From an uncultured Gammaproteobacteria bacterium (GTDB lineage: Bacteria; Pseudomonadota; Gammaproteobacteria; CAWCPV01): DNA of 64,000 nt. Position 1 is the first letter of the stretch, and each line of letters begins with the position of its first letter. The notes below the pieces were generated by a model that was not told where the DNA came from, did not search any database, and saw nothing but the letters and a program-made list of their open reading frames with translations. The stretch is from assembly GCA_963797555.1 (NCBI GenBank), contig CAWCPV010000004.1, positions 736,001-800,000 on the forward strand. The letters are read 5' to 3'. The translations under genes were made by a program, and so were the position numbers. Shown in pieces: positions 27,277-44,627 of the stretch.

Positions 27277-28194
27277 TCAGGAGTTCCTCGCTAGAAGTGC
27301 GGCGACCCGTTTGGCGATGCGGCAGTCCGGGGCGTCGAACCAACTGAACGCGGGCGAGGGGTTCACCTCGAAGCAGAACCATTCGCCGGCAGGTGATTGA
27401 CGCAAGTCGATCCCGGCCACGGGCAGCTCCAGCGAAGCGGCGAGGACACGGCACCGATCGGCCACCTCCACCGGTACATCCGCCTGGCGTCGACGCACTG
27501 CGGCCCCCTGACGCTCGCTGTATCGGTAGTCATCCGCCTCCGATACGAGCCCGCAGACGTATACATCATCACCGACTACGTGCACCCGGTAGTCAACCCC
27601 CCTCACGTACTCCTGGAACTGCGTGGGACAGACGGCTACCGCCTCGAGCTGCGCCCGTTTCTTCGGGGTCAGACGCGACACAATGCTACGGACGCCGCTC
27701 ACTGATTTGTATACGACATCGCCGAGCCGATCACAAAACTCCTCCGCCGCCTTCGGATCGGTTGTGACCAGCGTTTCCGGCACGGCAAAACCGGCTGCGC
27801 GTATCAGTTCCAATTGGTACGGTTTGGAGCTGTTGGAAGCCATCGCACTCATACGATTGACAACCAGCGCCGAGGTCATTTCGCTCCAGAGCCGTATAGC
27901 CTCGTACACCGCGACCGCGTAACGTCCTTCGGCACTCTGGTACCCGGCCTTGGCCACAGCCGGTATGCCGAGTGGATCGTACGGACGCACGTACGCCGCA
28001 GCGACCTTTTCGAGATCCAGACGCAGACCATCCCATTCGACCACGCACGCGACATCGGCGTCGACGCTGAGCTCGACGTTCGTCTCGAGCACCGCGCGCT
28101 GATCAATGAGCACAGCCGTGCGCTCCATGCGTGCCAATTCGTTCCGGACGGAGGCGATCGGGCGATCGCCCGCCAGTCCCCAGAGGAGGATCAT
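27277..28194 (-). CDS. ATP-grasp ligase (RimK / RiPP-maturase-like)
   Basis: SNSSKPYQL, GFAVPETLVTTDP, VVYKSVSG, QFQEYV, DYRVHVVG, AGIDLR, FEVNPSPAF. Confidence 0.88.
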   Translation of the reverse strand: MILLWGLAGDRPIASVRNELARMERTAVLIDQRAVLETNVELSVDADVACVVEWDGLRLDLEKVAAAYVRPYDPLGIPAVAKAGYQSAEGRYAVAVYEAIRLWSEMTSALVVNRMSAMASNSSKPYQLELIRAAGFAVPETLVTTDPKAAEEFCDRLGDVVYKSVSGVRSIVSRLTPKKRAQLEAVAVCPTQFQEYVRGVDYRVHVVGDDVYVCGLVSEADDYRYSERQGAAVRRRQADVPVEVADRCRVLAASLELPVAGIDLRQSPAGEWFCFEVNPSPAFSWFDAPDCRIAKRVAALLARNS

Positions 28195-28985
28195 GCAGTC
28201 TCCATTGCGCTGGCAACCATCCGCACCGGGCGCGCTTCGTGAGGTGCACGTACGAAGTCGCGACACCGGTCGATTAAAGCCTCGGCAACGCTTTCCGCGG
28301 CGACATCGATCCAGAGGCCCGCCTCGAGAAATACCGGTGCCTGCTCTGATCCGCGTTCGAAATACACCCGGAGCAGTTCGACCCCGGCGTCTCGGGCTAA
28401 AGCGATGGCCGCTTGCGCTAACGAAGCCTCGGCGGCACCAGGCGAGCGCCCACCCACCAGGAAAGCACGGTCGCCTACCACATCGACAAAGACCGCATTC
28501 GCGTTGACCCGGCACTCAGCGCCAGACGACCCGCCCGGCGTGTATACGATGCGTTGCCTGACCGGCCGGGTTGCTATCCCGAGCCGTCGTGCCCGTTGTA
28601 CCCACTGGGCAACGCTCCACGAAGGACCTCCCAGATTGGACGGCGACGGACGATTGAGAACGGGGCATTCGAGCGACATGAGCCACGCCACGAGGAACGC
28701 TTGCATCTCGGCCGCGGCATACCTGCGGTCTTCCTCGTGCACATGCGTCAGCTCAGCCTCTCCTACTGCCGGGATACGCGAGATGACCGCGCGGATGTCG
28801 TGGGTTGCGATCACCTGCCCATCGATCACCGCCTCTCCAAGTGCCACTCCGGCCACGTAGCGCCAGCCGGGACGCGACAGGTCCGCGCAGGTGAGGAGCG
28901 CCGCTCGCTCACCCGCGGCGCGCCAATGTTGAACGAGGGCGCGCGCTCCCGCGTCATGCCCGTACGCAAGGACAACGAACATCAT
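28191..28985 (-). CDS. Degenerate ATP-grasp-like partner protein
   Basis: N-terminal pre-ATP-grasp-like region (AVISRIP, LECPVLNRP, VDVVGDR, FLEAG) without canonical KP/QE/EVN motifs; ATGA overlaps with both neighbours. Confidence 0.6.
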   Translation of the reverse strand: MMFVVLAYGHDAGARALVQHWRAAGERAALLTCADLSRPGWRYVAGVALGEAVIDGQVIATHDIRAVISRIPAVGEAELTHVHEEDRRYAAAEMQAFLVAWLMSLECPVLNRPSPSNLGGPSWSVAQWVQRARRLGIATRPVRQRIVYTPGGSSGAECRVNANAVFVDVVGDRAFLVGGRSPGAAEASLAQAAIALARDAGVELLRVYFERGSEQAPVFLEAGLWIDVAAESVAEALIDRCRDFVRAPHEARPVRMVASAMETA

Positions 28986-29686
28986 TCCGTCCGTGGTTCA
29001 TTAAGTGCCCGCTCGCCCAGCATGGGGCGCTCGTCGGGAGCGATGAAGACACGCTGCTCGGAGTACCTCGGCGGTACGACAAACGGCAGGTTCTCCCCGA
29101 GCGGGTAGTCCAGGTGAAAGCCCTCGCTTATGACGCCAGGCCCATGGTGGTCTGCGTCTTTCTTCTCGGCGGCACCCAGACCGTCCTTGGTCGCCTCTTT
29201 CGCATTCTTGTCAGTATCGTCCTTGTCCTCCTTGTGTTCCTTGCTATCTTTGCTGTCCTTCTGATGTTTGGCTTCCTGGTTATCTTTGGTGTCCTTGGTT
29301 TCTTTAGTGTCCTTGGTTTCTTTAGTGTCTTTAGTATCCTTGGTATCCTTGGTGTCCTTCGACGCTTCTTTCTCCTTGCTGTCCTTTTCCTTGGCGTTGA
29401 GAAGGGTGACGATCTCGTTCAAGCAGACACTTAGCTGCGCCCGCAGCGCGTCGATACAGATGAAAGCGCGGCGCACGTTATCGCCGAGCGCATCGAGGTC
29501 CGCTTCGATCTTATGTAATCGCTCGTTGATGCCTCCCTCTTCGGGGGTCTTCCCCGCCTGCACCAGGCTTTCGCCGTCGATCCAGTCGCGGTGCTGGAAC
29601 GTGCGTACGAAGGTGTAAGCGCAATTCGGATCGGTCGCCTGTACACCGTTCACACACGCGATCTCGAGCGGGTTTGCGTCTGCCAT
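28982..29686 (-). CDS. Protein with coiled coil and (T/S)K(D/E) repeat tract; candidate ATP-grasp substrate and tail appendage
   Basis: GGAG RBS before ATG 29686; SKD-(TKD/TKE)x8 tract encoded by 9-bp repeats at ~29283-29363; C-terminal VFIAPDERP. Confidence 0.75.
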   Translation of the reverse strand: MADANPLEIACVNGVQATDPNCAYTFVRTFQHRDWIDGESLVQAGKTPEEGGINERLHKIEADLDALGDNVRRAFICIDALRAQLSVCLNEIVTLLNAKEKDSKEKEASKDTKDTKDTKDTKETKDTKETKDTKDNQEAKHQKDSKDSKEHKEDKDDTDKNAKEATKDGLGAAEKKDADHHGPGVISEGFHLDYPLGENLPFVVPPRYSEQRVFIAPDERPMLGERALNEPRTE

Positions 29687-29705
29687 TTGCAGTTCTCCTA
29701 TAGAC

Positions 29706-31997
29706 CTACGTCTCGCTAACGCCGCTTGCGCCGACGTGGCGAAGTTGGCGATACGGACGAAATGTGCGCGACAGCCTCGGCGAAAGCGCCTCGGCCGAGC
29801 CGTCGCCGTCCGCGTCGATTTGGTCACGGATCGCCCGGGTGTCGACGATCGTGCCCAGCGGGCGGATCCGTTCGAGCAGGTTCATCAGGAACTCGTATTG
29901 CTCCAGGTTGACGAGCGCTCCGTCGGGAGGCGCAACCCGCAGCTCCAATGGGTCGACCCGTCCACGCGGGTCCGCACTTCCGCGTTTACCGGGTACCGCC
30001 ACAACCACTGCGCACAAGCCGGTCCCGGAGATCCACCCGTTGCGGCTGCCAATCTTGCGTTCGAGCTGCCCTGGTTCGCCGCTCAGCGGCATCAGGTACC
30101 AACGGAAGGAATTCTTTGAACGCGCCGTGAGCAACGTCGCGTCGCCAGGCAGCGTCGTCACCGCCAACACGAGGAGCACGCGGCTGTCGCTGGTCAAAAG
30201 CGGGAGTATCGAGAAGAATCCAGCCTTCTGGAACGCGATGATCAGTGTAAGCAGCGTCTGCGCCGCCGTTGCGTCGTGCGCGATGAGCTTTGCGGCGAGC
30301 GCAGCATCGATTTGTAACGTTGCGACCAGTTCGCTCGGCAACGCCTGCAGCGCAGACTTGGCCCTGTCCACGTCCTGGGCGTCCTTCACCATATGGATGC
30401 GTGCATCGGTCATCGATTGTACCAGCGCGTCGGGTGGCGCCACGGCCAGCCCCCAGGCGGCGCGTTCTTCTGCGCCCGTGAGCAGAATCCATGGCGCGAT
30501 GCCGGCCGCGGCTCGTTCCACGTCTGCATCGAGCAGCGCGAGGACGAGCAGCGCATCGGGTCCCGAATCGAGCGGTGCGTTCCAGCGCGCATCGAGTAGC
30601 GTTTTTCCCGCCGTTACGTTCTTACCGATTACCAGCCCGTGGAATACCAGGTGGGAGACGTAGGTCTTGCTGGCATCGAGCGGATGCACGGTCGGCAGGC
30701 CGCATGGGGCAAGGAGCCAGCGGCCGCGCGGATCCTCGGTCGATGACTTGGGCTGCATTAGAGCGAGGAGCGCGCGGATCTCTGGCGCCGTATCAGGAGC
30801 GATGTTGCCGACCACATGGTTGGCTACCAGCGCGTCCAGCTCCGTCGCCGGCACTGCCTCGACGTCGACACCGAGGCCCAGTTCGTAGCGGCTTCCGCCC
30901 GCATGGTCCTGTGCACGCAGGACGGACCAGCGGCGCGTGCCACCGAGCGCCCGGCGGCACTCGCCCAGGCGATCCAATGCCCGCGCCAGCATGGGCGCGA
31001 TGTGCGCATTAGCGGGAAACTCGAAATTCAGGGCCAGGCGGGCGCGTAAGGCGTTCTCCTCGAGACGCACGTCGCTGGGGAGTAGGCGCGTGTCGGGGAC
31101 GTCGACGCCGGGCTGGAGCAGGAAAGCTTGACGCGCGTAATCCAAGAACGCGGTCCGCGGCGTGTCGTCTGGAGACGAGACCAGGCGCACGGCAACGAGG
31201 AACTCGGTGTCCGGCTCGGCGATGGTCAAGCGGTGCGTTACGCCCATCCGCGACAGAAGGCCCGCGTTGCCGCCGGTGCCCGGCCCGTTGATCACGCCCT
31301 CGACTGCGCGGCGCGACGAGCGCAAGAACGGGCGGTAGATGCTGAGGCGCGCGCGGAACGACGCGTCGGCCTCGCCTTGCGGTACGATGGTGGGCGCGCG
31401 CAGCGTCGCATCCCACACCAGGCGTGCGTTGAAACGCGGTACGCCCAACTCCGCACCAAGGCGGTCGAGCGCGGCGCCGCGTGCTTCGGCAAGTCGACGG
31501 GCGGCATAGATCTCGTTCGCCTCGCGTCTGAGGCGCATCTTCTCCGAGCCGATCACATAGAGCAGGCGCGCCAGGTTTCCCTCGACGACGCGCAGATCGA
31601 AGAGATCGCCCATTGCCGCAGACTCGCCTCCGACGCCCGGATCGAGGAACACGTCGAATGGCGTGGCGAAGTCGAGATCCATCGAGGCATCACCAGGGCG
31701 GTAGGCTAGAACTGACGCCCCCGCCTCCGTGTACGGCGCGAAACGCACGACCGCCGGCTCCACGGCCTCGCCGCTCGATTGGGTGATGTGGACGGTGCAG
31801 GCGAGTGCTTCAGCGCCGACCGCTCCCTTTGTCGAGACGAGGAGCAGCGGCAGCCTTGCCTTCCAGTCGACCCGGGCGGCGCCTGCCGCGTCGACGACCA
31901 GCTTGGTCTCGACCGCGCCTCCAGTGAACGGTCCGCTCAGGTGAGCGAACATGCTCTCGTGAGCCGCCGATCGATTGGGGTCCGGATGCAGGCTCAT
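29706..31997 (-). CDS. Putative baseplate wedge / tail protein I-like protein
   Basis: ARGAALDRLGAELGVPR...EADASFRARL resembles phage baseplate wedge proteins; directly follows baseplate J. Confidence 0.6.
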   Translation of the reverse strand: MSLHPDPNRSAAHESMFAHLSGPFTGGAVETKLVVDAAGAARVDWKARLPLLLVSTKGAVGAEALACTVHITQSSGEAVEPAVVRFAPYTEAGASVLAYRPGDASMDLDFATPFDVFLDPGVGGESAAMGDLFDLRVVEGNLARLLYVIGSEKMRLRREANEIYAARRLAEARGAALDRLGAELGVPRFNARLVWDATLRAPTIVPQGEADASFRARLSIYRPFLRSSRRAVEGVINGPGTGGNAGLLSRMGVTHRLTIAEPDTEFLVAVRLVSSPDDTPRTAFLDYARQAFLLQPGVDVPDTRLLPSDVRLEENALRARLALNFEFPANAHIAPMLARALDRLGECRRALGGTRRWSVLRAQDHAGGSRYELGLGVDVEAVPATELDALVANHVVGNIAPDTAPEIRALLALMQPKSSTEDPRGRWLLAPCGLPTVHPLDASKTYVSHLVFHGLVIGKNVTAGKTLLDARWNAPLDSGPDALLVLALLDADVERAAAGIAPWILLTGAEERAAWGLAVAPPDALVQSMTDARIHMVKDAQDVDRAKSALQALPSELVATLQIDAALAAKLIAHDATAAQTLLTLIIAFQKAGFFSILPLLTSDSRVLLVLAVTTLPGDATLLTARSKNSFRWYLMPLSGEPGQLERKIGSRNGWISGTGLCAVVVAVPGKRGSADPRGRVDPLELRVAPPDGALVNLEQYEFLMNLLERIRPLGTIVDTRAIRDQIDADGDGSAEALSPRLSRTFRPYRQLRHVGASGVSET

Positions 31998-32005
31998 CGC
32001 GTCAC

Positions 32006-33433
32006 CTAGACGATCTTCATGAGGGCGTCGTCGTCGGCGAACGTGGCGATCTCGCTCACCCCCACAGTGAGGTTCTCGCCACAGGGCAACTCACCAAAGT
32101 CGCGCCCGCCGAGCTGTTGCACTTCACCGAAGCGCGGCGGCGACCGCAGCAACCGAAGGTTGCGTACGTCCGCGAGCCCGGATTCGCCCATGAGCGCATA
32201 GGTCACCTCGGAGAAGCGTACCGGTTCGCCGAAGTCGAGCGTGTCGACATAGCGCTGGACCCGATCCAGGAGCGCCTTCTTGAAGTTCTTCGCCGCGTCG
32301 GAATCGTTGATGACCCCGGTCGACGTGCGCGGCAGCGGGATCCCGGTGACCACCAGGTCGGCGGCGATCCCGACGAACACGCGGTGCGCCTCCTGCACAC
32401 GCGGGTAGATGCCGATCGGACGCAGGTCCTCGATCACGGACTCGACGGAGACGCCTACGCCGGCCGGCCCATCGAAGATGGCTGCGTCAGTGAGGGCTAC
32501 CAGTACGGTGAAGAAGTTGGGCGACACGATGTCGCGCTCGGCGCCGAACACGCGCTCGATGAAGTTGAAGGTGCCGAAGATGGGGAGGTCGATGTCGAGC
32601 CCGCCGCCGTCGCGCACGACCACGCGCCGCACCCCCGGGACCAGGGATGCCGCCACGCGGATAGCCTCGACCGACCAGGTGGAGCGCGGGGCGCGCAATA
32701 GCAAGTCACGGTAGCGCCTGTCGGGCCAGCGCAGCTCCCCTCCGGCTAGGGGACGCGTATGCTCGATGGCGACCACCGATTCGAGTGAACCCGTCCCAGC
32801 GGCGGTGATCAGTGCGTCGAGGGTATCGGAGTCGTCGCGGTTCCAGAAGGCGATCTTCTGCGGGTTACCCCCGCCTGCGCTCACGTTCGGGTCGAGGTTG
32901 TGCTCGGGGCCGGGATAGAACGCCTCCACGGCCACATCCTTGGGCCCGCCCGTCCGGGTGAGGAGCACACTTTCGGTGGTAGCCACATGGTGGTTTCCGC
33001 TGGTATAGAGCCGGGCGCCGCGCGGGATCAAAAGCTCGTCGATCCCAGCGGGCAGCGCGGGCGTCAGGCGGATGGTCCCTTGCCCCTGCAAAAAGGGCCG
33101 CGGCAACCCCAGCTCCTCGCCCAGGCGGCTCAGCGCTTCTCCCCGCGCCGAAGAGACGAACTGGTTGTCATACACGGCAGCCAGCGCCGCCCAGGTGCGC
33201 GCGTCTTCCAGCGCCGTGACCTCGAGGATCTTGCGGATTGCCGAGCCCGAGGTGAGGTCGACATCCTTGCCGAACACCGTGCGTGCGAGAGCCAGCTTCT
33301 CCGCTAGGAGGCGCGCGAACGGCTTGGGGACGAACCCTCCGTCGGTCAGGCCGTATCCCTGAGCGCTCGTGGTGCGGGCCAGCTCCTCGTCGACTGCAAG
33401 GATGTCCGCAGTGTTGACCGTACCGTTAGCCAT
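32006..33433 (-). CDS. Baseplate J/gp47-like protein
   Basis: YGLTDGGFVPK, SARGEALSRLGEELGLPR, IPRGARL, GGELRWPDRRYR, YVDTLDFGEPV. Confidence 0.82.
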   Translation of the reverse strand: MANGTVNTADILAVDEELARTTSAQGYGLTDGGFVPKPFARLLAEKLALARTVFGKDVDLTSGSAIRKILEVTALEDARTWAALAAVYDNQFVSSARGEALSRLGEELGLPRPFLQGQGTIRLTPALPAGIDELLIPRGARLYTSGNHHVATTESVLLTRTGGPKDVAVEAFYPGPEHNLDPNVSAGGGNPQKIAFWNRDDSDTLDALITAAGTGSLESVVAIEHTRPLAGGELRWPDRRYRDLLLRAPRSTWSVEAIRVAASLVPGVRRVVVRDGGGLDIDLPIFGTFNFIERVFGAERDIVSPNFFTVLVALTDAAIFDGPAGVGVSVESVIEDLRPIGIYPRVQEAHRVFVGIAADLVVTGIPLPRTSTGVINDSDAAKNFKKALLDRVQRYVDTLDFGEPVRFSEVTYALMGESGLADVRNLRLLRSPPRFGEVQQLGGRDFGELPCGENLTVGVSEIATFADDDALMKIV

Positions 33434-33908
33434 TCGGCACCACCTTCCCGAGATCGAGCGTCGCAGTATCGCCCGTGACCGTCTCGAACACCACCTTCAC
33501 CTCCAGCTCGCGGATGTTGGAACCGGGGCTGGTCAGCCGCCCGTCCTGCAACTGCACATCGACGATGCGCCGCACCCGCGGGTCCTTCTGCAGCAGCGTG
33601 ATCACGGCGATGCGGATGCGCTCCTGCACCATGATCGGGACCGTCTCCTCGGCAATGGCGTTGAGCCCGTCGAAGCCGAAATCCACGTTGAACACATCAC
33701 CCGTGAGAGGTGTGGTGAGGGCCACGGTGAGCGCCTGCCCGAGGTTCTCCATTCCCTCGGTCAAGGCGAAGTCGCGCGTCATGCCGTCGCCGCTCGGCGC
33801 GAGCACCAGATCGCGCCCGAGGTCCAGCGCGCCCTGCGTGGGCGCGCACAGGAGGCCGAAGCCAAGCAGCCTGCGCCGCAGAATGGCACGTTCGCGTTCG
33901 GCATCCAT
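33426..33908 (-). CDS. GPW/gp25-like baseplate protein (sheath initiator)
   Basis: NLGQALTVALTTPLTGDVFNVDFG...LQKDPRVRRIVDV. Confidence 0.8.
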   Translation of the reverse strand: MDAERERAILRRRLLGFGLLCAPTQGALDLGRDLVLAPSGDGMTRDFALTEGMENLGQALTVALTTPLTGDVFNVDFGFDGLNAIAEETVPIMVQERIRIAVITLLQKDPRVRRIVDVQLQDGRLTSPGSNIRELEVKVVFETVTGDTATLDLGKVVPNG

Positions 33909-35825
33909 CAGCTGCCCCTCCCTCTGACGTCCATCACACCGTCGGTCTCGACTATCACGTTCCCCTTGGAGTCGAAGGTGATGTCCTCTCCCGCCACGAA
34001 GTGCAGCTTCTTCTTGGATTCAATGGTGATGTTCCCGTCCTGATCGATGACGATCTTGGACCCACTGGCGTGTTCAATGCTCACATGTTCATTGGCGGCG
34101 GCGGGGCGCGTGCCAGCCCGTTGCAGCTTGTCCGCACCCACGCGCACGGTGAACTTGCCCACCTCGATAACGCGGTTGCCGTCGGCGTCGATCAGGTCGT
34201 TGGTGGCCTTGCCGCCCGGCTCGTTCAGCTTCTTGTCGTCGGCGACCTGTTGGCGATCGGCCTCAGGAATGGCGGCCGGCAGGACCAGCCAGTAGTCACC
34301 GGGATTGGACGCGGGCGCCTGGCCCCGCTCCCACAGCGCCCCGATGTCGATAAGGTCGTCGTCGTCGCCGTTGCGGTGGGCAAGGAGCACCCGCATCCCC
34401 GGGTAGCGCGGCAGGACCAGACCGAACTTGCCCCAGGCGAACGGCGAGGCGTACGGTGCGGCATTGAAGTGACTTCCCCGGTCATCGAAGGCGAGTCGCG
34501 CGGCCGCGTACGGATAGCCGTCGTCGGCCACGAGGCCGCGCCAGAGCTTCTCGGTCTGTGCCGGGAGCTGTCCCCCGTTGGCGTTGGTGGCGCGCACCTG
34601 GCCCACGTCGAGGCGCCGTCCGCCCCCTTTGGCGGCGTGTTGACGGACCAGGCCCGCGAGCTCCCCTTCGGGGCTGTCGTCGTGCTGCGCCGGCTCGGGC
34701 ATGGCCGGCCCTTTGGGCGACCCGTGCTCAAACCAGCCTTCAAATTTCCCCGGGGGTCCGGAAGGGATGGCGACGCCGCGAAGCAGGGTTATGAAGGCGG
34801 ACTCGCGGGACAGACGGTGGTTGACGCCGCGCACGTACATTCTGGTCTTGGTGGCCGCGAGGACCTCGGGCACACCGAGTGCGAAGCTCACCGCCGACCC
34901 CAGCTCATCGGTCTCGTCGGGAGGACGGTTGAACTCGACGAAGTCGCCCGGTTTGATGTCCGGACGCCCGCGCAGGGTCAATTCGAAGACATCGCGCTTG
35001 CCGGCATCCGGGTTGCCCGGGTCTTCGGGTTCCTGGCCGCGACTCTCGATCTGGATGAGCCCTTCGTCGGCGCCGATCTGGAACGTCTTGCCGACCAGCC
35101 GCAGCCGGTCCGGGCCCATGTACAGCAGTCCATCGCGGATGAGGTACATCCCGAGGCCGAACTGCCCGGTTTGCTGCTCCATGGCCGCACCAAGCTCGCG
35201 CAGGCGCTCTACGCCTATCTCCCCTTCGGACCAGCTCCGCTCGTCGTTGTTCAACCTCGGAGGAGGGCGTCTTTTCCTGCGACAGGGAGTTCACCCTGAG
35301 CAAATGAGTGATTTGCGCCGCCGCCTGCAGGCTGTCGGCCTCCGTCCCCATCTGGGGAATAGGCTTCAGCAGCTTGTCGTAGACCAGGTCGCGCGCCTCG
35401 ATCACGACCTCGTAGCGACGCGCCCCCGCGCGCCGCTTGAGCGATGACACGCGCAACACTGCGACCAACGAGTCGTCGGGCGGCTCGTCGCCCTGCAGGG
35501 TGTCGGTGAGCCCGGCGAGGTCCACCAAGTAGCCCACCGGCCCTGCATCGCGCCAATAGAGGCGAAGGTTCGCCACCAGGTTCGCGCGCGCCTTGTAGAG
35601 CTTCGCATAGTCCTCGCTGCTCATCCCCTCGATGACGAAGGTGTAGCTCCCGCCGTCCAGGGTCCCCGGCAGGGTGGCGTCGATCGAGGCGTAATAATCC
35701 GACGAGCTAAGCGCCGCAACGCGCTCATTCTTGATATCCTCGGGCTTGACGTCCAAACCCTGGGACACCTCGCGAAACTCGATGTGCCACGCCGCGTGGA
35801 CGCCGACCTTGGGGATCGCGCTCAC
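33908..35825 (-). CDS. VgrG-like baseplate hub + spike (frameshift near 35255-35280)
   Basis: Hub-like LTLRGRPDIKPGD, OB-fold-like GLVLPRYPGMRVLLAHRNGD, beta-helix repeats SKIVIDQDGNITIESKK; N-terminal part in ORF 34905-36311 from GTG 35825. Confidence 0.75.
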
Positions 35826-36418: not shown

Positions 36419-36434
36419 GACCGGGCCCACGGCG

Positions 36435-36977: not shown

Positions 36978-37023
36978 CACATGCCGCCTTTCGCCCGCGT
37001 TACCCTGCACCCATGGGATTGCC

Positions 37024-37386
37024 TCACTCCGCCTTCAACCGATCGTGCACGCCCGCGCCCGCCGCGATCGTCCCCGGCGGAGTCCCATTCGTGGTTCCGC
37101 CTGGGGGATCGATGACGACGAACTCGCCATCGACCTTAAGCTTGGTAGCTTTACCCGACGTTACTTCCGACACGGCGGTGCACTTCACCTGGCCCGCATC
37201 CTCCTTGTTCTGGCAGGCTGAAATGGTCGCGGTCGCGACGAGAATGTTCGCCGTAGTCAGGACCTTATGGCCGTCCACCTTCAGCCTGCCGACGCCGCTC
37301 TTGGACAGCGTGCCCCCGTGCGGAGCCGGCTGCTCGGGCGTGGCCACGCACTTCAACACCGTGTCCTCAGTGAGCACCTTACCCAT
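37024..37386 (-). CDS. PAAR-like spike tip protein
   Basis: LKC...PHGG, LKVDGHKV, C...KC, LKVDGEFV; Cys/His metal-ligand pattern; 120 aa. Confidence 0.78.
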   Translation of the reverse strand: MGKVLTEDTVLKCVATPEQPAPHGGTLSKSGVGRLKVDGHKVLTTANILVATATISACQNKEDAGQVKCTAVSEVTSGKATKLKVDGEFVVIDPPGGTTNGTPPGTIAAGAGVHDRLKAE

Positions 37387-37783
37387 CAGCGTTACCTCTT
37401 TCGAGCCATTCGATGATCAGACGTGGCAGTGGGCCGAGGAGTGGGGCCTCGGCCGGCCACTTCCCCAGCTGCACTTGAATTACTTGCCCGCCGTTGGGCT
37501 TGCGCCAGTAGCTGGTGCTCATGGCGTACCGGTCGCCTCCGGCGTCCTCGCCGATCCGGATGGCCCCGCGAAAACCTCGAGGTGTCCACGTTCCCTCGAC
37601 GGGACGCAGCTCCGACACGCCATAGAGGGTAATGTCCGCTGCGGGGATCGAGAGCCCATCCGTGAGCTCGAGTAGCGCACTCGGTTGATTGGGGAGGCCC
37701 ACGCCGGCCCGGTCTTCGCCGTTGTAGCTCCGTAGGAGAGCAGAGCAGCAGGGTCTCGCCGTATAGCTGGTGATCGCCATCAC
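37379..37783 (-). CDS. SMI1/KNR4 (SUKH)-like immunity protein
   Basis: LP...LLELTDG...LYGVSEL...AIRIGEDAGGDRYA...LIIEWLE pattern; directly downstream of the toxin-like gene. Confidence 0.65.
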   Translation of the reverse strand: MMAITSYTARPCCSALLRSYNGEDRAGVGLPNQPSALLELTDGLSIPAADITLYGVSELRPVEGTWTPRGFRGAIRIGEDAGGDRYAMSTSYWRKPNGGQVIQVQLGKWPAEAPLLGPLPRLIIEWLERGNADG

Positions 37784-37792
37784 GCTTCCTCG

Positions 37793-40700
37793 CTAGTTGA
37801 AACTCACAAACGGTAGCGTCGCCTCGAAGGCGTTCCGGTACTCGGTGAGTTCGGCCTCGGTGATATCGCCGCGCTTGAGGGCCCGCTTGATCACGGCGTG
37901 TTCGAGCGCCGGTCGCAGCCGCCCCTTCACATCCTCAATGACCTGCCGCATCACGGCCGGATCGTTGACATCCGAGATCTTGAGCCGGCGTGCCGCCGCC
38001 GCGGCGATTTCCTGGCTGCGAATGCGCCAGTCGATCGACTCAAACGCGCGAGAACTCCCAGTCAACATCCGGCGCTCCGTCACCTCGATGACGATGTTGG
38101 TCGCCAGCTGGCGGACCGCGTCGTCTCCGAGGCTGCGCAGCCGATAGATTTCCTTCACCTCGACGCGCCGAGTCAGGGCTGCACTGGGACGGAACACGCG
38201 GAAGTCCGACACGCGCAACTCTCCACCGGCAGACAGACCCGGGTCTTCGAACGCCAAGTGGGCGTCCGGGAAGCGGTCCAGTTCCTTATTGGCTGCGAGC
38301 AGGACGCCAACGACAGCCTTGTACTTCTGAGGTACGTTGCCGGTGAGATCCGGGATAAGTCTGCCCAGATCTAAGGAGCGCGGCGCCAGCCGCTGCAATG
38401 ACTCGAAGATCCCCACGACTTGCTGTGGTTCGAAGTTGTGAAAGACGCGTAGCGCCTTGCTGGCGGTCGTACCCGATCGCAGCTCGAAGAAGATCTCCAG
38501 TCCCTCGTTCGCCTGCGGCGAGAAGCTCGCCAACGTGCGCAACGCCTTCTGCACGTCCATGAACCACTCGCCGGTTTCGATGGGAGAAAGCAGCTTGGCC
38601 AGCGTCGAGGCGTTGCCGCCGCGCTCGAGAAAGCGGCTGAATCCCTCCATTTCGGCGGTGTGCTGTGGTCCCAGGAAGCGGCCGATCCCCCGCAAAAGCC
38701 GCTGTGCCGTGCGCTGGCTGCGCTGGGCGACGGTCGTCAGTTGTGCCACGAACTTCGCGGTGTCGGGCTGTCCCTGGATCACGTGCAGTGCGCGGCGCTG
38801 CGCTTTAACGTCGTATCCGCCGACGATGGCGTCAATCGATGGGGGAGGCACGCTCGGGCGGCCGGGCAGCAGCAACAGAGGCCGGTCCATACCCGCGCCG
38901 GTCAACCGGAGGACGCCACCGCCCGTATCGGTCACCTCATAGCCTGCCCGACGGAATCGCACCATCATCTGGTCTGCGCTTTGCGCAGGCACATATGGGT
39001 TGTATTCGAACGCCTCCGGTCCGACGGCGACCAACTCGTGGACCACTTCCGATGGCGCAGGGCGCGTCCGCGCCGCCCCTGCCCCTGCGGAGGGTGGCTG
39101 CGAGTTGCGGACGATCTCGGCGTACTGCGCGACTATCTTCGCCAAGGCACCCACACGCGAGCGGCTGAGGCCCAGTGAGGCCAAGGCTTCGTCGGAAAAG
39201 TTCTTGCCCGCCATACGCCCGAGCACCTCTTCGAGCTCTGGCAGGATTGTCAGCAAGCGTTTCTTCAGCGATGCGTGTTGTGCGTCGTCTGGCCCACTCG
39301 GACCGATTCGGCGAATCTCGTCGAAAATGGCAGCGCCTTCCTGGCGCACGCGATCGAACCGGGCCAAGAGTTCGTCCTGGATATTCAGCGCACGCAACTG
39401 CTGGCGTAGGCGCGAGCCACCGAGGAGCGCACCGGTCGCCGACAGCACCACGCTGGAGAACATGAATGTCTCCATGTCCTCCGGCATGTGGCCGGTTTGG
39501 ACAAGCGTCAAGCCCAGATTGATGCCGGTGCCCACCGCCGCGTCGGCGCCCAACACGATGCTGAGCTGCGCTAGATCGCGCCCAGGGGCAAGGTAGCGTC
39601 CAAATGCCACGAAGCGGACGTTAAACCATCGGAATAGGAACCCGAAGGCCGCATTTTCACTGAATGAGACCAGCACGTCTCGGGCGCTCACCTCCTCGTG
39701 CAGAGCGACGACCTGTCCGAGCGTCGTCACAGCCGTAAACGTTCCGGCTCCAATCAGCGTGGTCTCGGTGGCGGTCAAGCCCAACGCGCCTTCGGCGATC
39801 CCTGCGACGCCCCAGGTCACGACCATCGCGACAACGGTGATTCCAAGGCGAACCCAGAACTTCCGTTTGTTGCGTCTGACTTCTTCCTCTGCCTTGTCGT
39901 TTATTTCTTTGACCAGCTCATCGAGGCGCTGCTGCCACCCCTTCATCTTGTCTGGCAGGTTGGCGTAATCAGGGTGTTCAAGCTCGCGCTTGACCCCAGC
40001 GATGATGGGGTCGGTACGCCGCCACCAACTGACGTGATCGTCGACATCACCGATGTCGTGATCGATTGCCCAGTCCGGCAACTGCAGCGCGCCGTGCCAG
40101 AACGTCATCAGGGATCGCTTTACTTCGAGCTCGCCGAGCTGTTGCCGCAGCTTGCCGGCTAACACGAGATAGGGCTCACCACGGCCGTGCTTGCCCGCGT
40201 TTGCCACTTCGCTCCCCAGTGCGCCGACCTGCTGTAGGAGCTGATTGAGTTTCGTGTTGAACTTGGTGTATGCGTTGTCGTGGCCGACCCCCATCACAAA
40301 GATGGGGATCAACGTCACCTGGTAGGTCAGCTCTTTGATTCCCGCTGCGACATGCTCCAGCCGCTTGTCGGCGGCGAGCCCCTGCCAATCCGCATAAAAT
40401 GCGTCCGCGTCTTTCAGCAGTTTGTCGATCGGATCCTTCCGGAACGGCGATGCGCGCAACGCATCGATGAGCACGTCCAGATAGCGCGAGCGAGCCTGCA
40501 ACAGGATCTGTACCTCCTCCAGGTTGTCAGCCTCCTGTCCTGCACTGAGTCGATACAGCAGCAGCCAATTGTCAATCTCGCGCACCTTGGCCAGTACCGC
40601 CACCAAGACCTGGTAGTATGCGAGTAACTCTTCCTGTGGCACGAACGTGCTTATGCCTTGCTTGCCGCTGGCGAGCGCCGCCAGCAGCGCGGGATAGCGC

Positions 40701-41689
40701 CACAGATCGATGCGATTCAGTGCCTTGAAGATCACATCCTCGGTCTTCTCTTCCGCGGTGATCAGGTAGCCCTGCAGATGCAGTCGCGCAGTGGCGATCG
40801 GATCGAGGAGCGCGACGATACGCCGGAAGCCTGGAATGCGGCGCTCCAATTCGCCCGTGAGCCACGCGGCTTCGGGCAACTCTCCGGCCAAATGGATTGC
40901 GTCGGCGGCAATGTCGAGAGACTGGGCGGCTTCTTGGATCGCTTGCTTGTCTTTATCGATACGCCTGATCGCACCTTCGGAGAATTCGTAAACACGTGCG
41001 ATCGCCGCAGCGCTCCCTGTCGAGGCTTCCAGCAGCAGCTTGCGGAACTTCGCTGGGTTGCGCTTGGCAAACGCGCGCAGGATTTCCACGTTCAGGGGAT
41101 CGGCGGGATCCCGCCCCGGTCTCGTCCGTGTTCCGCTCAAGATTCGCTGGAACAGACTGCCGTCGTCTTTGACAAGTTGCGCGACCGTCGTGCGAATCAG
41201 TGTGAGCTGTTCGTCGGAGAAATCGCCAGGTTGCCGGGCACGCTTGACGATCAGGAGCTTCGGCGTAAGGTCCTTTTTCGGCTGATAGCTGGGAATGAGG
41301 TAGCCGTCGCCGTCGAGCGTCCATCGATGCTCGTCGACCCGTTCGCGAATCTCGTCCGGCAGTACAGGGGGCGCCGTGACCGCGGCGCGTACGAAGTCGT
41401 ACAGGTGTGCACTGGAGGCGGCACGTGAGAAGGTCTCTTTCACCAGCGCTTCGATATCGGCGCGGACCGCCGCCGATACCCGGTCGAGCTCGCCACCGGT
41501 CCAGACGACTTTGGGTTCCCAGAGACGGATAGTCGCATATCCGCCGCGCCGCGCGAGGACGACATCCCGCGAGCTGGCGAGAGCCCGTCCGGCGGCAGAG
41601 GCGAGAGCTTCTGCGATCACGTCGCGCCGCTTCGCGAGGCCCGTCGCGTTGACCCGGATGCGGGTTGGAATGATCACGCTCACGGGCAT
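37793..41689 (-). CDS. Large putative effector/toxin with TM segments and a C-terminal PD-(D/E)xK-like domain
   Basis: Helical N-half; Gly/Ala-rich hydrophobic block FWVRLGITVVAMVVTWGVAG...; C-terminal FED...VSDFRV...VEVKEI. Confidence 0.6.
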   Translation of the reverse strand: MPVSVIIPTRIRVNATGLAKRRDVIAEALASAAGRALASSRDVVLARRGGYATIRLWEPKVVWTGGELDRVSAAVRADIEALVKETFSRAASSAHLYDFVRAAVTAPPVLPDEIRERVDEHRWTLDGDGYLIPSYQPKKDLTPKLLIVKRARQPGDFSDEQLTLIRTTVAQLVKDDGSLFQRILSGTRTRPGRDPADPLNVEILRAFAKRNPAKFRKLLLEASTGSAAAIARVYEFSEGAIRRIDKDKQAIQEAAQSLDIAADAIHLAGELPEAAWLTGELERRIPGFRRIVALLDPIATARLHLQGYLITAEEKTEDVIFKALNRIDLWRYPALLAALASGKQGISTFVPQEELLAYYQVLVAVLAKVREIDNWLLLYRLSAGQEADNLEEVQILLQARSRYLDVLIDALRASPFRKDPIDKLLKDADAFYADWQGLAADKRLEHVAAGIKELTYQVTLIPIFVMGVGHDNAYTKFNTKLNQLLQQVGALGSEVANAGKHGRGEPYLVLAGKLRQQLGELEVKRSLMTFWHGALQLPDWAIDHDIGDVDDHVSWWRRTDPIIAGVKRELEHPDYANLPDKMKGWQQRLDELVKEINDKAEEEVRRNKRKFWVRLGITVVAMVVTWGVAGIAEGALGLTATETTLIGAGTFTAVTTLGQVVALHEEVSARDVLVSFSENAAFGFLFRWFNVRFVAFGRYLAPGRDLAQLSIVLGADAAVGTGINLGLTLVQTGHMPEDMETFMFSSVVLSATGALLGGSRLRQQLRALNIQDELLARFDRVRQEGAAIFDEIRRIGPSGPDDAQHASLKKRLLTILPELEEVLGRMAGKNFSDEALASLGLSRSRVGALAKIVAQYAEIVRNSQPPSAGAGAARTRPAPSEVVHELVAVGPEAFEYNPYVPAQSADQMMVRFRRAGYEVTDTGGGVLRLTGAGMDRPLLLLPGRPSVPPPSIDAIVGGYDVKAQRRALHVIQGQPDTAKFVAQLTTVAQRSQRTAQRLLRGIGRFLGPQHTAEMEGFSRFLERGGNASTLAKLLSPIETGEWFMDVQKALRTLASFSPQANEGLEIFFELRSGTTASKALRVFHNFEPQQVVGIFESLQRLAPRSLDLGRLIPDLTGNVPQKYKAVVGVLLAANKELDRFPDAHLAFEDPGLSAGGELRVSDFRVFRPSAALTRRVEVKEIYRLRSLGDDAVRQLATNIVIEVTERRMLTGSSRAFESIDWRIRSQEIAAAAARRLKISDVNDPAVMRQVIEDVKGRLRPALEHAVIKRALKRGDITEAELTEYRNAFEATLPFVSFN

Positions 41690-41766
41690 GAGTCAGGCGC
41701 CTACCAGCACGACGTTCCACATGGAGACCTGTCTACCGCCCTCGCGGCGCTTGACCGTCAACACAT

Positions 41767-42033
41767 TTAGGTCTCGCGTAGGCGCCGCGACAGCCGCTCG
41801 TAGACGTAGCGGGCGATTGCATCCATGTCAACGTCCCCGCCCTCCCCGCGCACCTCGATCTCGACGGGGAAGTGATAATGGATCACCGTGCGCGCATCGT
41901 CGGCCACGAACTCGGCCTGCGCCTCGCTCCCGGCGGCCGGGAGGACCACTTCCCCCTCGTGCACCAGCGCGATGCCGGTCTCGAGGATGCGTTTGGCTCC
42001 CGTCTCCTCACGGTCTTCAGGCTCTCTCGCCAT
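41767..42033 (-). CDS. Small protein resembling a tape-measure C-terminal motif
   Basis: GIALVHEGEVVLP motif; follows the tube gene. Confidence 0.55.
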   Translation of the reverse strand: MAREPEDREETGAKRILETGIALVHEGEVVLPAAGSEAQAEFVADDARTVIHYHFPVEIEVRGEGGDVDMDAIARYVYERLSRRLRET

Positions 42034-42044
42034 GTGCTAGCCCC

Positions 42045-42485
42045 TCATGGGATCTCCACTTTGACGTTGTCCTTGCCGTCGGTGGTGGCGTGCATGCTGA
42101 AGCCCGAGAAGGTGGCGGTGGGCGCACCGCTCGGCGATGCTGAGGTGGGCGTAGCGCTGGTGATCATGCAGTCGCCCAACACGACGGAGTTGAACGACCA
42201 GTCGTCGCCGATCTTCTCCTGCAGGGTGATGTCGAAGCGCTTCCCCTGCATCGCCAGCGCGGTCAGACGCGCAGCCACATCCCCAATGGCCTTGACGGTG
42301 ATGGAGAAAGTGATCGACTGGGGCGAGAACACCGCCCCCACGTGGGTGCGCTCGATCGAATGGATAGGCTCTATCGCGAGGGAGAAAGAGGGGGAGAACG
42401 AGTCGATCGGGGTGATATCGACCGTCGTCCCGTTCTCGGTGTAGCTCACCGCGAGGCGAGTCCTCCAGTCCAGATTGTCTGCCAT
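42045..42485 (-). CDS. Putative tail tube protein
   Basis: 146 aa, beta-rich, GGAGG RBS, directly downstream of the sheath gene. Confidence 0.7.
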   Translation of the reverse strand: MADNLDWRTRLAVSYTENGTTVDITPIDSFSPSFSLAIEPIHSIERTHVGAVFSPQSITFSITVKAIGDVAARLTALAMQGKRFDITLQEKIGDDWSFNSVVLGDCMITSATPTSASPSGAPTATFSGFSMHATTDGKDNVKVEIP

Positions 42486-42497
42486 GGCTCAACCCTC

Positions 42498-43664
42498 CTA
42501 GAACTTCGGCTGCAGCGTGACCCGCAGGCGATGCACGGCGGGGCCGTAGGTAACGCTCACGAACATATCCACGCTGCGGTTGGCGCGCGCGTTGGTGACC
42601 AGCGCCCGCTCCGTGGCGGTCCAGTTGCTCTCGGGGATCGAGAGGATGTTGAGCACCGGTATATCGATGGTGTAGTCATCGATGGTCGCGGCACGCTTGA
42701 GCGGACCCATGATGCCGTCGACACGGGTCTTGACCCCGACGAGGCCCGGCTTGGTGATGCGTGCATCGCCAATTGCGCCGATGAGACCGGCCTTGAGTCG
42801 GAAGTCGATGTCGTCGAGAGTGCGCACGATGTCGACGTAAAGCAGGTTGGCGTCGGTGGTAAACAGCCGTCCTTCGGCGAAGAAGAAGCCGCCTCCCACG
42901 ATCAGCGCCGGCTGGATGATGGGGACGATGCCGAACTCGGAGAGCGCCCTGATCTCCGAGGGGCTGTATTGCTCCGCGACCGGGATGGCGATCCCGCGGA
43001 TCCGTTTCAACACGATGGAGGTCGATGGCGCGTATCCGGCGACCGCGGCCATTGCGGCGCTGGCGGTGTCGGCTTGCGTCCCGGCGTCGTTCTTCGCGCC
43101 TCGCGCGGCGACCATGAGGACCCGGCTCACGCTGCTCTCCAACGTGGGTGTACCGGTGAGCCCCGTGTGCACGTCGCTGGCGTAGGTGGGCGACTTGCCG
43201 ATGGTCGGGTCCACCATCATCACCGCGATGCGCTTCTGCCCCGCGGCCGACATATTCTCGGCGTGGGTTTTCAGCTTGCTCAAGTTGGTCTTGTCGGTGA
43301 CATTGGCCAGCGACACGAAGGTGACGTCGTCCGCGGCCTCGAGGGCGGCGAGCCCGGCGTCGAAGTCGGCGTCCGCCAGCTTGACGCCATAGATCTTCGA
43401 GGGCCGCGGGTCCTGCAAGAGGGCCAACCGCAGCGATTCGTACAGGGGGTTGGGGGTCACGGTGTTGCTGCTGACTGCGGCGAACAGCGCGGCGGCGTCG
43501 GCGAGGGTGTCGACCACGAGCGGCACGTTGACCGCTGCGGTGCCGCCCCCTCCCGTCGCGCCCACGATAGCGATAACGCCTGGCGCGCGCTGCGCCACCG
43601 GGGCGAGCTGCGAGGTGTCGATGAACACCTCGATGAACGGATACGCTGCAGGTACGCTTGCCAT
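42498..43664 (-). CDS. Contractile tail sheath protein
   Basis: APGVIAIVG at the N-terminus; C-terminal sheath-like LYVDIVRTLDDI...IDDYTI...VSVTYGPAVHRLRVTL. Confidence 0.82.
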   Translation of the reverse strand: MASVPAAYPFIEVFIDTSQLAPVAQRAPGVIAIVGATGGGGTAAVNVPLVVDTLADAAALFAAVSSNTVTPNPLYESLRLALLQDPRPSKIYGVKLADADFDAGLAALEAADDVTFVSLANVTDKTNLSKLKTHAENMSAAGQKRIAVMMVDPTIGKSPTYASDVHTGLTGTPTLESSVSRVLMVAARGAKNDAGTQADTASAAMAAVAGYAPSTSIVLKRIRGIAIPVAEQYSPSEIRALSEFGIVPIIQPALIVGGGFFFAEGRLFTTDANLLYVDIVRTLDDIDFRLKAGLIGAIGDARITKPGLVGVKTRVDGIMGPLKRAATIDDYTIDIPVLNILSIPESNWTATERALVTNARANRSVDMFVSVTYGPAVHRLRVTLQPKF

Positions 43665-43679
43665 GTCGGAGTTCTCCCG

Positions 43680-44627
43680 TTAGGGGTGTTTTGGAGTGGG
43701 CGCGAAGGCGATCCCCTCCGGTCCCAACCACGCGGCCGCAGCGCGGCGCCTGAGCAGGCGCTTCTCCGCCACGGAGCCGCTTGTGCCGCCGGGCCAATCG
43801 TCGTCGTCGAAAATCGTCTCGGGCACCATCCACACCACTAGGATGGGCGCCCGCGCGCTTGTGTTGGCATCACGCGCCCGCTCCACACCTGCCTCTCGCA
43901 GGTGCTCGCCGACCATCTTGCTCTGTGACAGGATCTCGGCGAGCGAGATCGGCTGATCGCGCAGGAGCACCGCCGCGGTGATGGGGAGCTCGCGCGGCGA
44001 AGGGGGCGGCGCCGTCGGGTCGGAATAGCGGATACGCAAGGTCCCGGTCGAAATGACGCCGCGGAAACGGGTCATGAGGTCGCTCACCGATTCGGCGCCG
44101 ACGCGACCCAGCCAATCATCGAAGATCGCATCGGTGAAGGCATCGGGCTGGCGCAACGCCGCGCGGATGCGCGCGAGGAACCGGTTGCGCCTTTCTCTGT
44201 CCAGTGTGATTGGGTTGGTCGGCGGCGCGCCCAGCGCCGCGATGATCTCCCCGTCGATCCCCGACGGATCGGGCCACTCCGAGATCTCCTCGATGATTTT
44301 CCCCGTCGCGGGGGTGATGCGGGCGATGATGCTGCCGCGCCAGAGCGCGTCGATGCGCACCGACGAATCGCGCCCCATCCCAGTGATGATGAAGCGCCCT
44401 TCGTTGCGCATCGTCCCCATGTTCCACCAGCCGTCGACGGTCGAGCGGTTGGGGATCGATAACCCGATCTCCATCTCACGAAAGACCGCCTGGTACGGCC
44501 CGCTCAGCGCAGCCGCCTCCTCCCCATAGCCGGCGGCGGCCATCTGCTCGAGCGCTTCTTCGTCGAACAGAGTTGCCCGCGTCGCCGGATCGGCCATGCG
44601 GATGAGCGTAAAGTCGACGTAGTTCAC
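43680..44627 (-). CDS. Hypothetical protein, first gene of the tail cluster
   Basis: 315-aa ORF, GTG start with G-rich RBS, 15 bp upstream of the sheath gene. Confidence 0.7.
   Translation of the reverse strand: MNYVDFTLIRMADPATRATLFDEEALEQMAAAGYGEEAAALSGPYQAVFREMEIGLSIPNRSTVDGWWNMGTMRNEGRFIITGMGRDSSVRIDALWRGSIIARITPATGKIIEEISEWPDPSGIDGEIIAALGAPPTNPITLDRERRNRFLARIRAALRQPDAFTDAIFDDWLGRVGAESVSDLMTRFRGVISTGTLRIRYSDPTAPPPSPRELPITAAVLLRDQPISLAEILSQSKMVGEHLREAGVERARDANTSARAPILVVWMVPETIFDDDDWPGGTSGSVAEKRLLRRRAAAAWLGPEGIAFAPTPKHP

Follow-up and report, generated by a model that had tools for sequence, protein, structure and literature searches.

A head-less contractile tail cluster whose repeat-bearing fibre-position protein is probably cross-linked by a graspetide-type enzyme pair

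Contractile tails that carry no head and the ATP-grasp enzymes that make graspetides are both known kinds of system. Among the former are the R-type tailocins, which have no head genes, and the extracellular contractile injection systems (eCIS; Afp/PVC, AlgoCIS and the Streptomyces contractile injection system, CIS), which are encoded by head-less contractile tail clusters in bacterial chromosomes; among the latter are MdnB/MdnC (microviridins), PsnB (plesiocin) and CorA/CorB/CorC (corallotide). According to the portion of the text of PMC13097080 that deals with it, CorB is a TIGR04187 enzyme whose 22-kDa precursor acquires Lys-Asp isopeptides in five KxxxD motifs; CorB depends for its activity on a partner protein. 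Here we describe a locus in which the two kinds of system appear to be joined. It lies at positions 27277-44627 of a 64,000-nucleotide stretch of DNA (hereafter the window, to which all unprefixed positions refer) from an uncultured gammaproteobacterium (GenBank assembly GCA_963797555.1, contig CAWCPV010000004.1, positions 736,001 to 800,000). We think it likely that this region encodes a complete head-less contractile tail whose fibre-position protein, g15, is cross-linked by the products of the two genes that follow it, g16 and g17. All genes of the cluster are on the minus strand, and neighbours overlap by 1-8 nt or are separated by short gaps; the map of open reading frames (ORFs) thus bears out the coordinates, strand and dense packing given in an initial annotation of the same DNA. 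That annotation was also right that the genes are co-oriented, but its count of 15 gives way to 16, the hub gene being counted once though a frameshift cuts it in two (g10 and g11). The G+C content of the window is ~65%.

The case for a coupling between tail and enzymes rests on the product of g15 (28982-29686, 234 aa), the putative substrate. An alignment of the baseplate J protein was scanned over one genome per species, which gave 79 loci, and the 17 proteins of the window were compared with these by tblastn. Of the 79 loci, 74 share with the window a fibre-position protein that has an N-terminal domain of ~100 aa and then a coiled coil; this domain presumably anchors the protein in the baseplate. 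Where the enzyme pair is missing (68 loci), g15 continues in 67 cases into a C-terminal region different from that of the window protein, and these proteins are mostly ~330-357 aa long. In g15 of the repeat type, by comparison, the usual ~230-aa distal domain is replaced by ~20 xK[D/E] tripeptides, an LGAAEK-like element and a C-terminal RxFIxPxERPxxG motif. The tract of the window protein spans residues 98-168 (29183-29395) and holds 22 K, 15 D, 10 T and 9 E; g15 has 21 K[DE] dipeptides, which confirms it as the K/D-repeat protein of the initial annotation, and 20 KxxxD/E positions, and the repeat is visible in the DNA as period-9/18/27 arrays at 29219-29359. The motif occupies residues 212-224 (29015-29053), and R212, F214, I215, R220, P221 and G224 are invariant in all seven repeat-type g15 proteins.

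The distribution of this unusual tail follows that of the enzymes. Repeat-type g15 occurs in the window and in exactly six loci with g16 and g17 (L002, L003, L004, L005, L009 and L072); conversely, the enzyme pair is present in 6 of the 79 species genomes, always directly 3' of a repeat-type fibre gene. In all seven pair-bearing loci g15 carries the motif together with 15-25 K[DE] dipeptides, whereas in the 68 g15 proteins without the pair the number of K[DE] never exceeds 5 and the motif is missing throughout (0/68). The association of ATP-grasp genes with such tails, which the initial annotation had suggested might recur in other genomes, is therefore found in these six and, as set out below, the pair also follows DUF6519 fibres of a second lineage. 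That annotation had left it open whether a component of the particle or a cargo is cross-linked; most likely it is g15 itself that is modified, and not a cargo. In a tree of the J proteins (50 rows, IQ-TREE quick search, LG+G4, with 30 of 34 Micromonospora rows left out), six of the seven loci with this cassette of repeat tail and enzyme pair fall in one clade that mixes Acidobacteriota and Myxococcota (Shimodaira-Hasegawa-like approximate likelihood ratio test, SH-aLRT, 98), and the Amycolatopsis locus lies far off in a distant actinobacterial clade. The tree requires at least two changes of cassette state, and none of 500 label shuffles gave so low a score. We conclude that this tail family acquired the cassette on at least two occasions.

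The enzyme encoded by g17 (27277-28194; 305 aa from an internal ATG of a 412-aa ORF) is recognised by several NCBIfam models, TIGR04187 at 1.1e-35, MvdD at 3.6e-22, MvdC at 1.5e-18 and rimK_fam at 1.3e-15. Its best match in the PDB is PsnB (7drm, 6e-23), followed by PruB (9bou), CdnC, AMdnB and MdnB/C, and RimK appears only at 1e-6. Residues K163, E276 and N278, which we take to have catalytic ATP-grasp roles, are invariant in seven orthologues. These comparisons place g17 in the MdnC/PsnB macrocyclase clade, as an ATP-grasp ligase of the graspetide type.

The protein encoded by g16 (28191-28985, 264 aa) shows no similarity to g17 by BLASTP, and a search of the g16 profile against PDB sequences gave no match. 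Nevertheless, hhalign aligned residues 21-141 of g16 with residues 22-140 of g17 (probability 53%, E 1.3e-4), and Foldseek placed an AlphaFold2 (AF2) model of g16 with a mean predicted local distance difference test score (pLDDT) of 80 closest to MdnC (7e-9) and PsnB (1e-8), with MdnB and PruB also matched and template modelling (TM) scores of ~0.6. The two ATP-grasp genes of the initial annotation are therefore both upheld, g17 through TIGR04187 and PsnB and g16 through its fold. However, g16 is shorter than g17 and its invariant columns hold no counterpart of K163, E276 and N278; it is probably a non-catalytic, degenerate ATP-grasp paralogue. Its family is large and uniform: of the representatives at 50% identity, 2325 match at E<=1e-3 and 671 at E<=1e-30, the 150 best being mostly 225-265 aa long. 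When the complex of g17 and g16 was predicted, three runs scored it at 0.85, and the best-scoring of three controls came out at 0.00; among benchmark cases, 58 of 80 solved complexes and 2 of 110 mismatched pairs attain that mark. The partner pLDDT was 86, contact agreement was >=93% and the interface was pseudo-symmetric, so that g16 and g17 are predicted to form a pseudo-symmetric heterodimer. The g15/g16 and g16/g17 junctions each consist of a 4-nt overlap.

The same arrangement is found well beyond this tail family. A scan of metagenomes with the g17 alignment gave 458 encoding stretches, from which 80 loci were kept. In 71 of these g16 is present, directly upstream of g17 in 67 and downstream on the other strand in four (L117, L118, L119 and L121); tail genes of the window's family are present in only two (L087 and L088). 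By a looser scan checked by eye, the ORF before g16 ends in K/E/D-rich repeats and an F[IV]xxx[ED]RP motif in 41 of the 42 loci with >=700 nt upstream; a stricter script found the motif in 34 of 48 loci, its own frame and stop rules accounting for the shortfall. These upstream ORFs are 97-1378 aa long, and KEIKEIKE, KDKDKD and TKDTKD are examples of their repeats. In a sample of them searched with Pfam, four carry DUF6519, one has Kelch, and one combines peptidase M64 with an Ig-like domain; typing of the substrates by tblastn gave 13 loci of the DUF6519 type, nine of the Kelch type and one of the M64 type.

DUF6519 is described in the text of PMC12923769 available for this comparison as eBAP5, the baseplate-anchor domain of eCIS tail fibres. 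Consistent with this, tblastn detected a baseplate gene upstream in 11 of the 13 DUF6519-type loci, J-like in eight and only gp48/Afp12-like in three. Pfam identified Baseplate_J 5' of the DUF6519 protein in L115, L147 and L153, and in L096 a protein with a sub-threshold Mu Gp48 match and an HHH_3 domain, the latter being clear. On this evidence the same pair and the same C-terminal tag are attached to the fibre genes of a second, classical eCIS-like lineage, and the cassette has been recruited to the fibres of contractile machines at least three times, twice in the family described here and once in the DUF6519 lineage. As far as the text of PMC12923769 goes, eBAP5 fibres and g15 are alike in having an N-terminal baseplate anchor and exchangeable distal modules, but the N-domain of g15 is not DUF6519 by Pfam. 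The genome of the window itself contains a second g16/g17-like pair (47% identity; contig C3, 532358-536073), which lies beside a 686-aa Kelch-type protein ending in K/E-rich repeats, a helix and the motif FISKKERPDVG. A second pair with a Kelch-type substrate of its own fits enzyme-substrate pairs that are dedicated in cis.

With described graspetide systems the locus shares the ATP-grasp clade of g17 and a substrate with repeated donor and acceptor residues, and microviridin clusters likewise have two genes of the ATP-grasp fold. It departs from them in the position of the putative recognition motif, which is C-terminal here whereas graspetide precursors have an N-terminal leader, and in its substrates, which are large structural or enzymatic proteins (234 aa for g15, and of the lengths given above elsewhere). 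Pfam identified no protease or transporter family in the cluster, and no gene for a protease or exporter adjoins the cassette in the window, unlike the situation with small graspetide peptides that are cleaved and exported. Compared with corallotide, as far as the consulted text describes it, the partner here is a degenerate ATP-grasp protein and not an oxygenase or a peptidyl-prolyl isomerase (PPIase). The 2026 RODEO update mentions, in the text consulted, newly added groups whose precursors are long and repetitive and whose co-occurring proteins are unknown (groups 34/35; PMC13097080), and the g16/g17 enzymes may be among them. The words 'phage' and 'baseplate' do not occur in the consulted text of the graspetide phylogenomic survey PMC8939145, nor do 'ATP-grasp', 'isopeptide' or 'post-translational' in the main text of the eBAP5 fibre catalogue PMC12923769. 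Full-text literature searches, which took in neither the supplementary tables of PMC13097080 nor those of PMC12923769, returned no prior account that joins ATP-grasp or graspetide enzymes with contractile injection systems, phage tails or eCIS. By these searches the coupling of a fibre with an enzyme pair has not been described previously, though it may sit in those supplements.

That the remaining genes encode a contractile tail is best supported by the sheath. The initial annotation had labelled g02 (42498-43664, 388 aa) as such, and structure prediction vindicates the label: an AF2 model built with 18 homologues has a mean pLDDT of 84, and when it was compared with the PDB by Foldseek every top match was a contractile sheath (E 3e-13 to 1e-8, TM 0.6-0.7, 13-17% identity), among them those of phage 812, diffocin CD1363, R-pyocin (3j9q), PVC, AFP and the Streptomyces CIS. 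There were 57 PDB matches at E<=1e-3, and all 37 chains listed are contractile tail, tailocin or CIS entries. Sequence methods are far less sensitive for this protein, with a sub-threshold match to Pfam Phage_sheath_1 (E 0.009), a weak PHROG score and no significant match when the sheath alignment was searched as a profile against PDB sequences.

The baseplate genes are recognised more readily. The gp25 and baseplate J labels of the initial annotation are both supported by PHROGs, where g12 (33426-33908, 160 aa) matches phrog_975 'baseplate protein' (2.8e-6) and phrog_43 (1.9e-3), and g13 (32006-33433, 475 aa), the J or gp47-like protein, matches phrog_6 (baseplate wedge/J) at 2.5e-35; some homologues of g13 have PF04865/PF26079 or bear the name 'baseplate J/gp47 family'. 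For sheath, J and gp25, then, the structural ORFs do match tail folds or families, as that annotation had supposed. Its wedge label for g14 (29706-31997, 763 aa) draws support from weak matches to phrog_6 (6e-4) and phrog_1160, and the gene is kept in 77 of the 79 loci.

The putative hub is encoded by g10 (35253-35825, ~190 aa, with a GTG start at 35825) and g11 (33908-35254, 448 aa), the N- and C-terminal parts of a hub/spike protein whose reading frame shifts at ~35253-35256, within a poorly conserved linker. Together the two parts amount to the ~635 aa of intact homologues and are colinear with single ORFs. Among 29 diverse loci listed, 23 have a single hub ORF of 615-676 aa, one has an ORF of 724 aa, L002 one of 650 aa, and four (L005, L021, L023 and L037) a split hub. 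The profile of full-length hub homologues weakly matches the Gp5/Vgr protein of the Streptomyces CIS (9gtr_q, E 0.0023), and one homologue matches Pfam DUF2345 at E 0.032.

Other components are placed by their position. NCBIfam gave no match for the structural genes, the Pfam models for sheath, tube, PAAR and gp25 stayed below threshold, and a rerun of Pfam with homologues from other phyla recognised the structural genes no better. The tube label of the initial annotation, which belongs to g03 (42045-42485, 146 aa), reflects position and size only: its homologues in 26 loci are 50-68% identical, no significant match was found in Pfam, NCBIfam, PHROGs or PDB sequences, profile search included, and 3 of 27 homologues weakly match a PHROG 'tail protein'. 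Between the genes for tube and g04 and those of the baseplate, every locus has a g05 (37793-41689, 1298 aa in the window). In the nine loci where the whole ORF was recovered g05 is ~1030-1585 aa long; the first 140 residues are conserved in almost every locus, the stretch 965-1295 is conserved in several, and a hydrophobic block begins at residues 611-638. The protein has no family match in Pfam, NCBIfam or PHROGs, nor do its homologues in Pfam. Because of its position, its conserved termini and the hydrophobic block, g05 fits a tape measure better than the 'toxin-like' protein it had been called. A reading of g05 as a polymorphic toxin with g06 (37379-37783, 134 aa) as its SUKH immunity gene was rejected as the main one, since the termini of g05 are conserved and it sits in the tape-measure position, and since g06 has no match in Pfam, NCBIfam or PHROGs and is found only in the window and L003. 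The 'PAAR' label of g07 (37024-37386, 120 aa) fares like the 'SUKH-like' label of g06, there being no PAAR match in Pfam, and g07 is a spike-tip protein by position.

The cluster belongs to a family that is widespread and almost entirely hidden from annotation. Judged from record titles, the 79 loci span eight phyla (Acidobacteriota, Myxococcota, Pseudomonadota, Actinomycetota, Cyanobacteriota, Chloroflexota, Armatimonadota and Eremiobacterota), with 34 of them in Micromonospora. Genes g02-g04 and g08-g15 are in the same order in almost all loci, and J identity is 45-82%. Homologues of the sheath and of J form 716 and 621 clusters, respectively, at E<=1e-3 among 8000 candidates scored, and almost all are named 'hypothetical'. 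The sheath was not found in 40 genomes of the same class. Homologues of g01 (43680-44627, 315 aa), which are 313-344 aa long, lie directly 5' of the sheath gene in four of five other genomes examined, although g01 itself matches nothing in Pfam, NCBIfam, PHROGs or the ESM Atlas. Beyond g01 these five genomes have unrelated cellular genes, for example for ABC transporters, P450 and BREX, and no head family was seen 5' of the cluster among the best 25 of 62 Pfam families. The cluster of the window is flanked by housekeeping genes, among them those for exonuclease VII, PEP carboxylase, IMP dehydrogenase, GMP synthase and SRP54. The initial annotation had stated that capsid, portal, terminase and the membrane complex of a type VI secretion system (T6SS) are absent. 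None was seen here, with the limit that the flanks were judged from the best 25 of 39 families: this holds for capsid, portal and terminase in the 26 flanking ORFs and for the T6SS TssB/TssC pair, TssJLM and ClpV in cluster ORFs and flanks, and there is a single sheath gene. No gene 3' of g15 is conserved across phyla. We conclude that this is a widespread and poorly annotated family of head-less tails, bounded by g01 and g15; among the best 25 families in each case, no head gene was seen beside it in the window or 5' of it in the five other genomes, where cellular genes form its border.

With R-type tailocins (R-pyocin PA0622, diffocin CD1363) and P2/Mu-like tails the cluster shares a short sheath of ~385 aa with the same fold, and its gene order (sheath, tube, small protein, long tape-measure-position protein, hub/spike, gp25, J, large wedge, fibre) presumably corresponds to that of P2/Mu-type tail modules. 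It differs from these in the low sheath identity noted above, as measured by structural alignment, in the lack of lysis genes seen in the cluster, in its spread over eight phyla, and in a fibre with a K/D repeat and dedicated ATP-grasp enzymes. The likeness to eCIS extends to the sheaths of Afp, PVC and the Streptomyces CIS and, weakly, to the hub. However, an AAA+ ATPase (Afp15-like) has no Pfam or NCBIfam match in the cluster ORFs and there is no conserved extra gene before g01 or after g15; the cap (Afp16/DUF4255) and the marker families DUF4157, Pvc16_N and CIS_tube give no Pfam match at E<=0.01 in the 17 cluster ORFs; and no effector is identifiable in the cluster. Because the ATPase, cap and marker families are absent, we do not file the family as a member of the eCIS, so that the 'eCIS-like' of the initial annotation is not carried over, though the particle may work like an eCIS or a tailocin.

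Several findings weigh against a complete tail whose fibre is cross-linked by g16 and g17, and we consider them together with the explanations that they favour. One such explanation is that a free-standing graspetide cluster merely adjoins a tail, its true substrate being encoded elsewhere and the K/D tract of g15 being a disordered linker. In the metagenomes the pair is indeed mostly outside tail contexts, serving Kelch-type (nine) and peptidase M64 (one) loci as well, and so is not specific to tails; the cassette is missing from 68 of 74 tail loci in which g15 could be detected, and is therefore not needed for the tail as such. Just beyond g17 lies a mobile-element-like ORF (26580-27230), and the G+C content at third codon positions (GC3) of g15-g17 (0.69-0.73, against 0.76-0.88 for most tail genes and 0.73 for g06) suggests a separate acquisition. 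Against chance, the N-domain that belongs to the tail family continues in frame into the repeat and motif, the repeat tail is present in 7/7 loci with the pair and in 0/68 without it, both junctions are 4-nt overlaps, the family gained the cassette independently at least twice, and the same cassette sits on the DUF6519 fibres of another tail lineage. Nor does the genome hold another ORF with motif and repeats near this pair. We therefore regard a chance neighbourhood as very unlikely. The tube, tape measure, spike tip and fibre role of g15 are nonetheless assignments by position; profile searches of g15 against PDB sequences gave nothing significant; and g15 as the substrate, the type of bond, the fibre role of g15 and the function of the particle are all deduced from genomics alone.

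The hub frameshift raises a different concern, as it may be real and mark a dead locus, or may be an error of assembly. Were it real, the region might be a decayed prophage, a dead myovirus tail module that makes no particle and in which the cassette is a moron or a later insertion without a role in the tail. The split hubs of the four other loci point the same way, as does the single close locus found in a scan of IMG/VR (L166), a contig that carries the cluster and in which a tyrosine recombinase gene (XerC/integrase-like, 6e-7; L166:13738-15021, minus strand) directly follows the fibre-position gene. Decay is hard to reconcile with ~15 genes kept in order and without a head across eight phyla, at the J identities given above, between flanks that are cellular and that differ from locus to locus. 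By tblastn against 50,697 phage records the sheath had no match and J only 12 marginal partial ones, and the IMG/VR scan yielded no second close match. The hub is intact in most of the loci listed, and three of the four other split loci are assemblies from uncultured organisms, where indel errors are plausible. This explanation is accordingly judged improbable. We think it also unlikely, if a little less remote, that g17 does act on g15 but by a different chemistry, adding amino acids as RimK does or ligating the acidic tract of g15 to an amine from outside the protein, for instance that of a polyamine, of a cell-wall component or of a different protein. RimK models and structures match g17, public annotation calls its relatives RimK-like, and the K/E patterns of some substrates have no fixed spacing. 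The graspetide macrocyclases of the PDB nevertheless match g17 far better than RimK does, Lys and Asp/Glu are always co-enriched in the tracts, as expected of donor-acceptor pairs, and a TIGR04187 enzyme provides the precedent for Lys-Asp isopeptides in repeated motifs. Two further points concern the enzyme pair itself. The scores of g17 all lie below the curated cut-offs of the NCBIfam graspetide models, so that it is best treated as a distinct subfamily, and the score of the predicted heterodimer may reflect the model's memory of the homodimeric MdnC and PsnB structures.

If g15 is indeed cross-linked by g16 and g17, the heterodimer would dock on the C-terminal motif of g15, which would serve as a 'follower' in place of a leader. 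Side chains of Asp or Glu in the repeat tract would be activated at the expense of ATP and joined to Lys as amides, or possibly to Thr as esters. In every unit of the tripeptide repeat an Asp lies four residues after a Lys, which is the register cross-linked in corallotide. Since none of g15-g17 has a hydrophobic segment, modification would take place in the cytoplasm, before assembly. The expected outcome on the assembled particle would be a distal fibre tip that is covalently braced or cross-linked between chains, and such a tip could stiffen the fibre or make it protease-proof, link the fibre chains covalently, or itself bind.

Tail fibres set what contractile injection systems and tailocins bind, and they are the part that is re-engineered in delivery tools. 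To our knowledge no fibre tip other than a folded domain has been described. A cross-linked repeat tip built by enzymes would, if real, be a new principle of target binding or of fibre stability, and graspetide chemistry would reach from small secreted peptides to large structural proteins by way of a tag that is simple and transferable, K/D repeats plus a C-terminal motif of 12 residues. The analysis also exposes two sizeable families where public annotation says 'hypothetical', the contractile-tail family and that of the g16 partner. A bolder and distinctly more speculative possibility, which we put forward tentatively, is that these loci represent a large undescribed class of protein-modifying graspetide systems, defined by an active and a pseudo-ATP-grasp protein and the F[IV]xxx[ED]RP tag, and that at least two lineages of injection machines have recruited it repeatedly to make a ribosomally encoded 'warhead', cross-linked by enzymes, at the fibre tip that replaces a folded receptor-binding domain and sets the target of the particle. 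Such a warhead would be a ladder of overlapping Lys-Asp macrocycles, possibly joining fibre chains, and its target might be, for example, a surface protease, as with graspetides of the microviridin type.

The cluster contains several further conserved genes. The 88-aa protein g04 (41767-42033), in the chaperone position after the tube gene, is conserved in most loci and has no match in Pfam, NCBIfam or PHROGs; its earlier reading as a mini tape-measure protein was rejected, as it has no supporting feature and a long gene in the tape-measure position follows. Both g08 (36435-37010, 165-190 aa or up to 191 aa, the start codon being uncertain), in the position of a baseplate or tube adaptor, and g09 (35822-36421, ~199 aa) are kept in 75 of the 79 loci; g08 has a single sub-threshold Pfam match (Dit_like, 0.003), and g09 has none in Pfam or PHROGs, nor have its homologues in Pfam. 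The position of g07 varies, the gene lying directly 3' of the hub gene in most loci where it was detected (compare L002-L080, ~9.1 kb) and being shifted in the window and L003 to a place before g08, alongside the extra gene g06 (the two spanning 37024-37783 in the window). A promoter and terminator scan of the cluster gave fewer sites than shuffled sequence.

Diversity is also apparent at the distal end of the family. In type-A g15 proteins, those with the usual distal domain (e.g. L037:13863-14870), the last ~70 residues are weakly like helix-hairpin-helix domains (RNA polymerase alpha C-terminal domain, RAD51 N-domain) at a non-significant E of 0.3-0.9; the ESM Atlas returned nothing for a type-A g15. 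The one exception among the 68 loci without the enzyme pair is a Leptolyngbya genome, whose fibre-position protein (L030:14140-14805) has exchanged that distal domain for one like phycobilisome proteins (PF00502, 1.4e-10). An additional gene of ~318 aa follows the fibre-position gene in actinobacterial loci (L043:14845-15801, with homologues in L033, L069 and L073) and was not found in other phyla. In the window, the ORF of 216 aa directly beyond the end of g17 (26580-27230, plus strand) has no Pfam family at 1e-6; its C-terminal part looks like the end of an insertion sequence (IS)-type transposase, and the ORF could mark the edge of an insertion.

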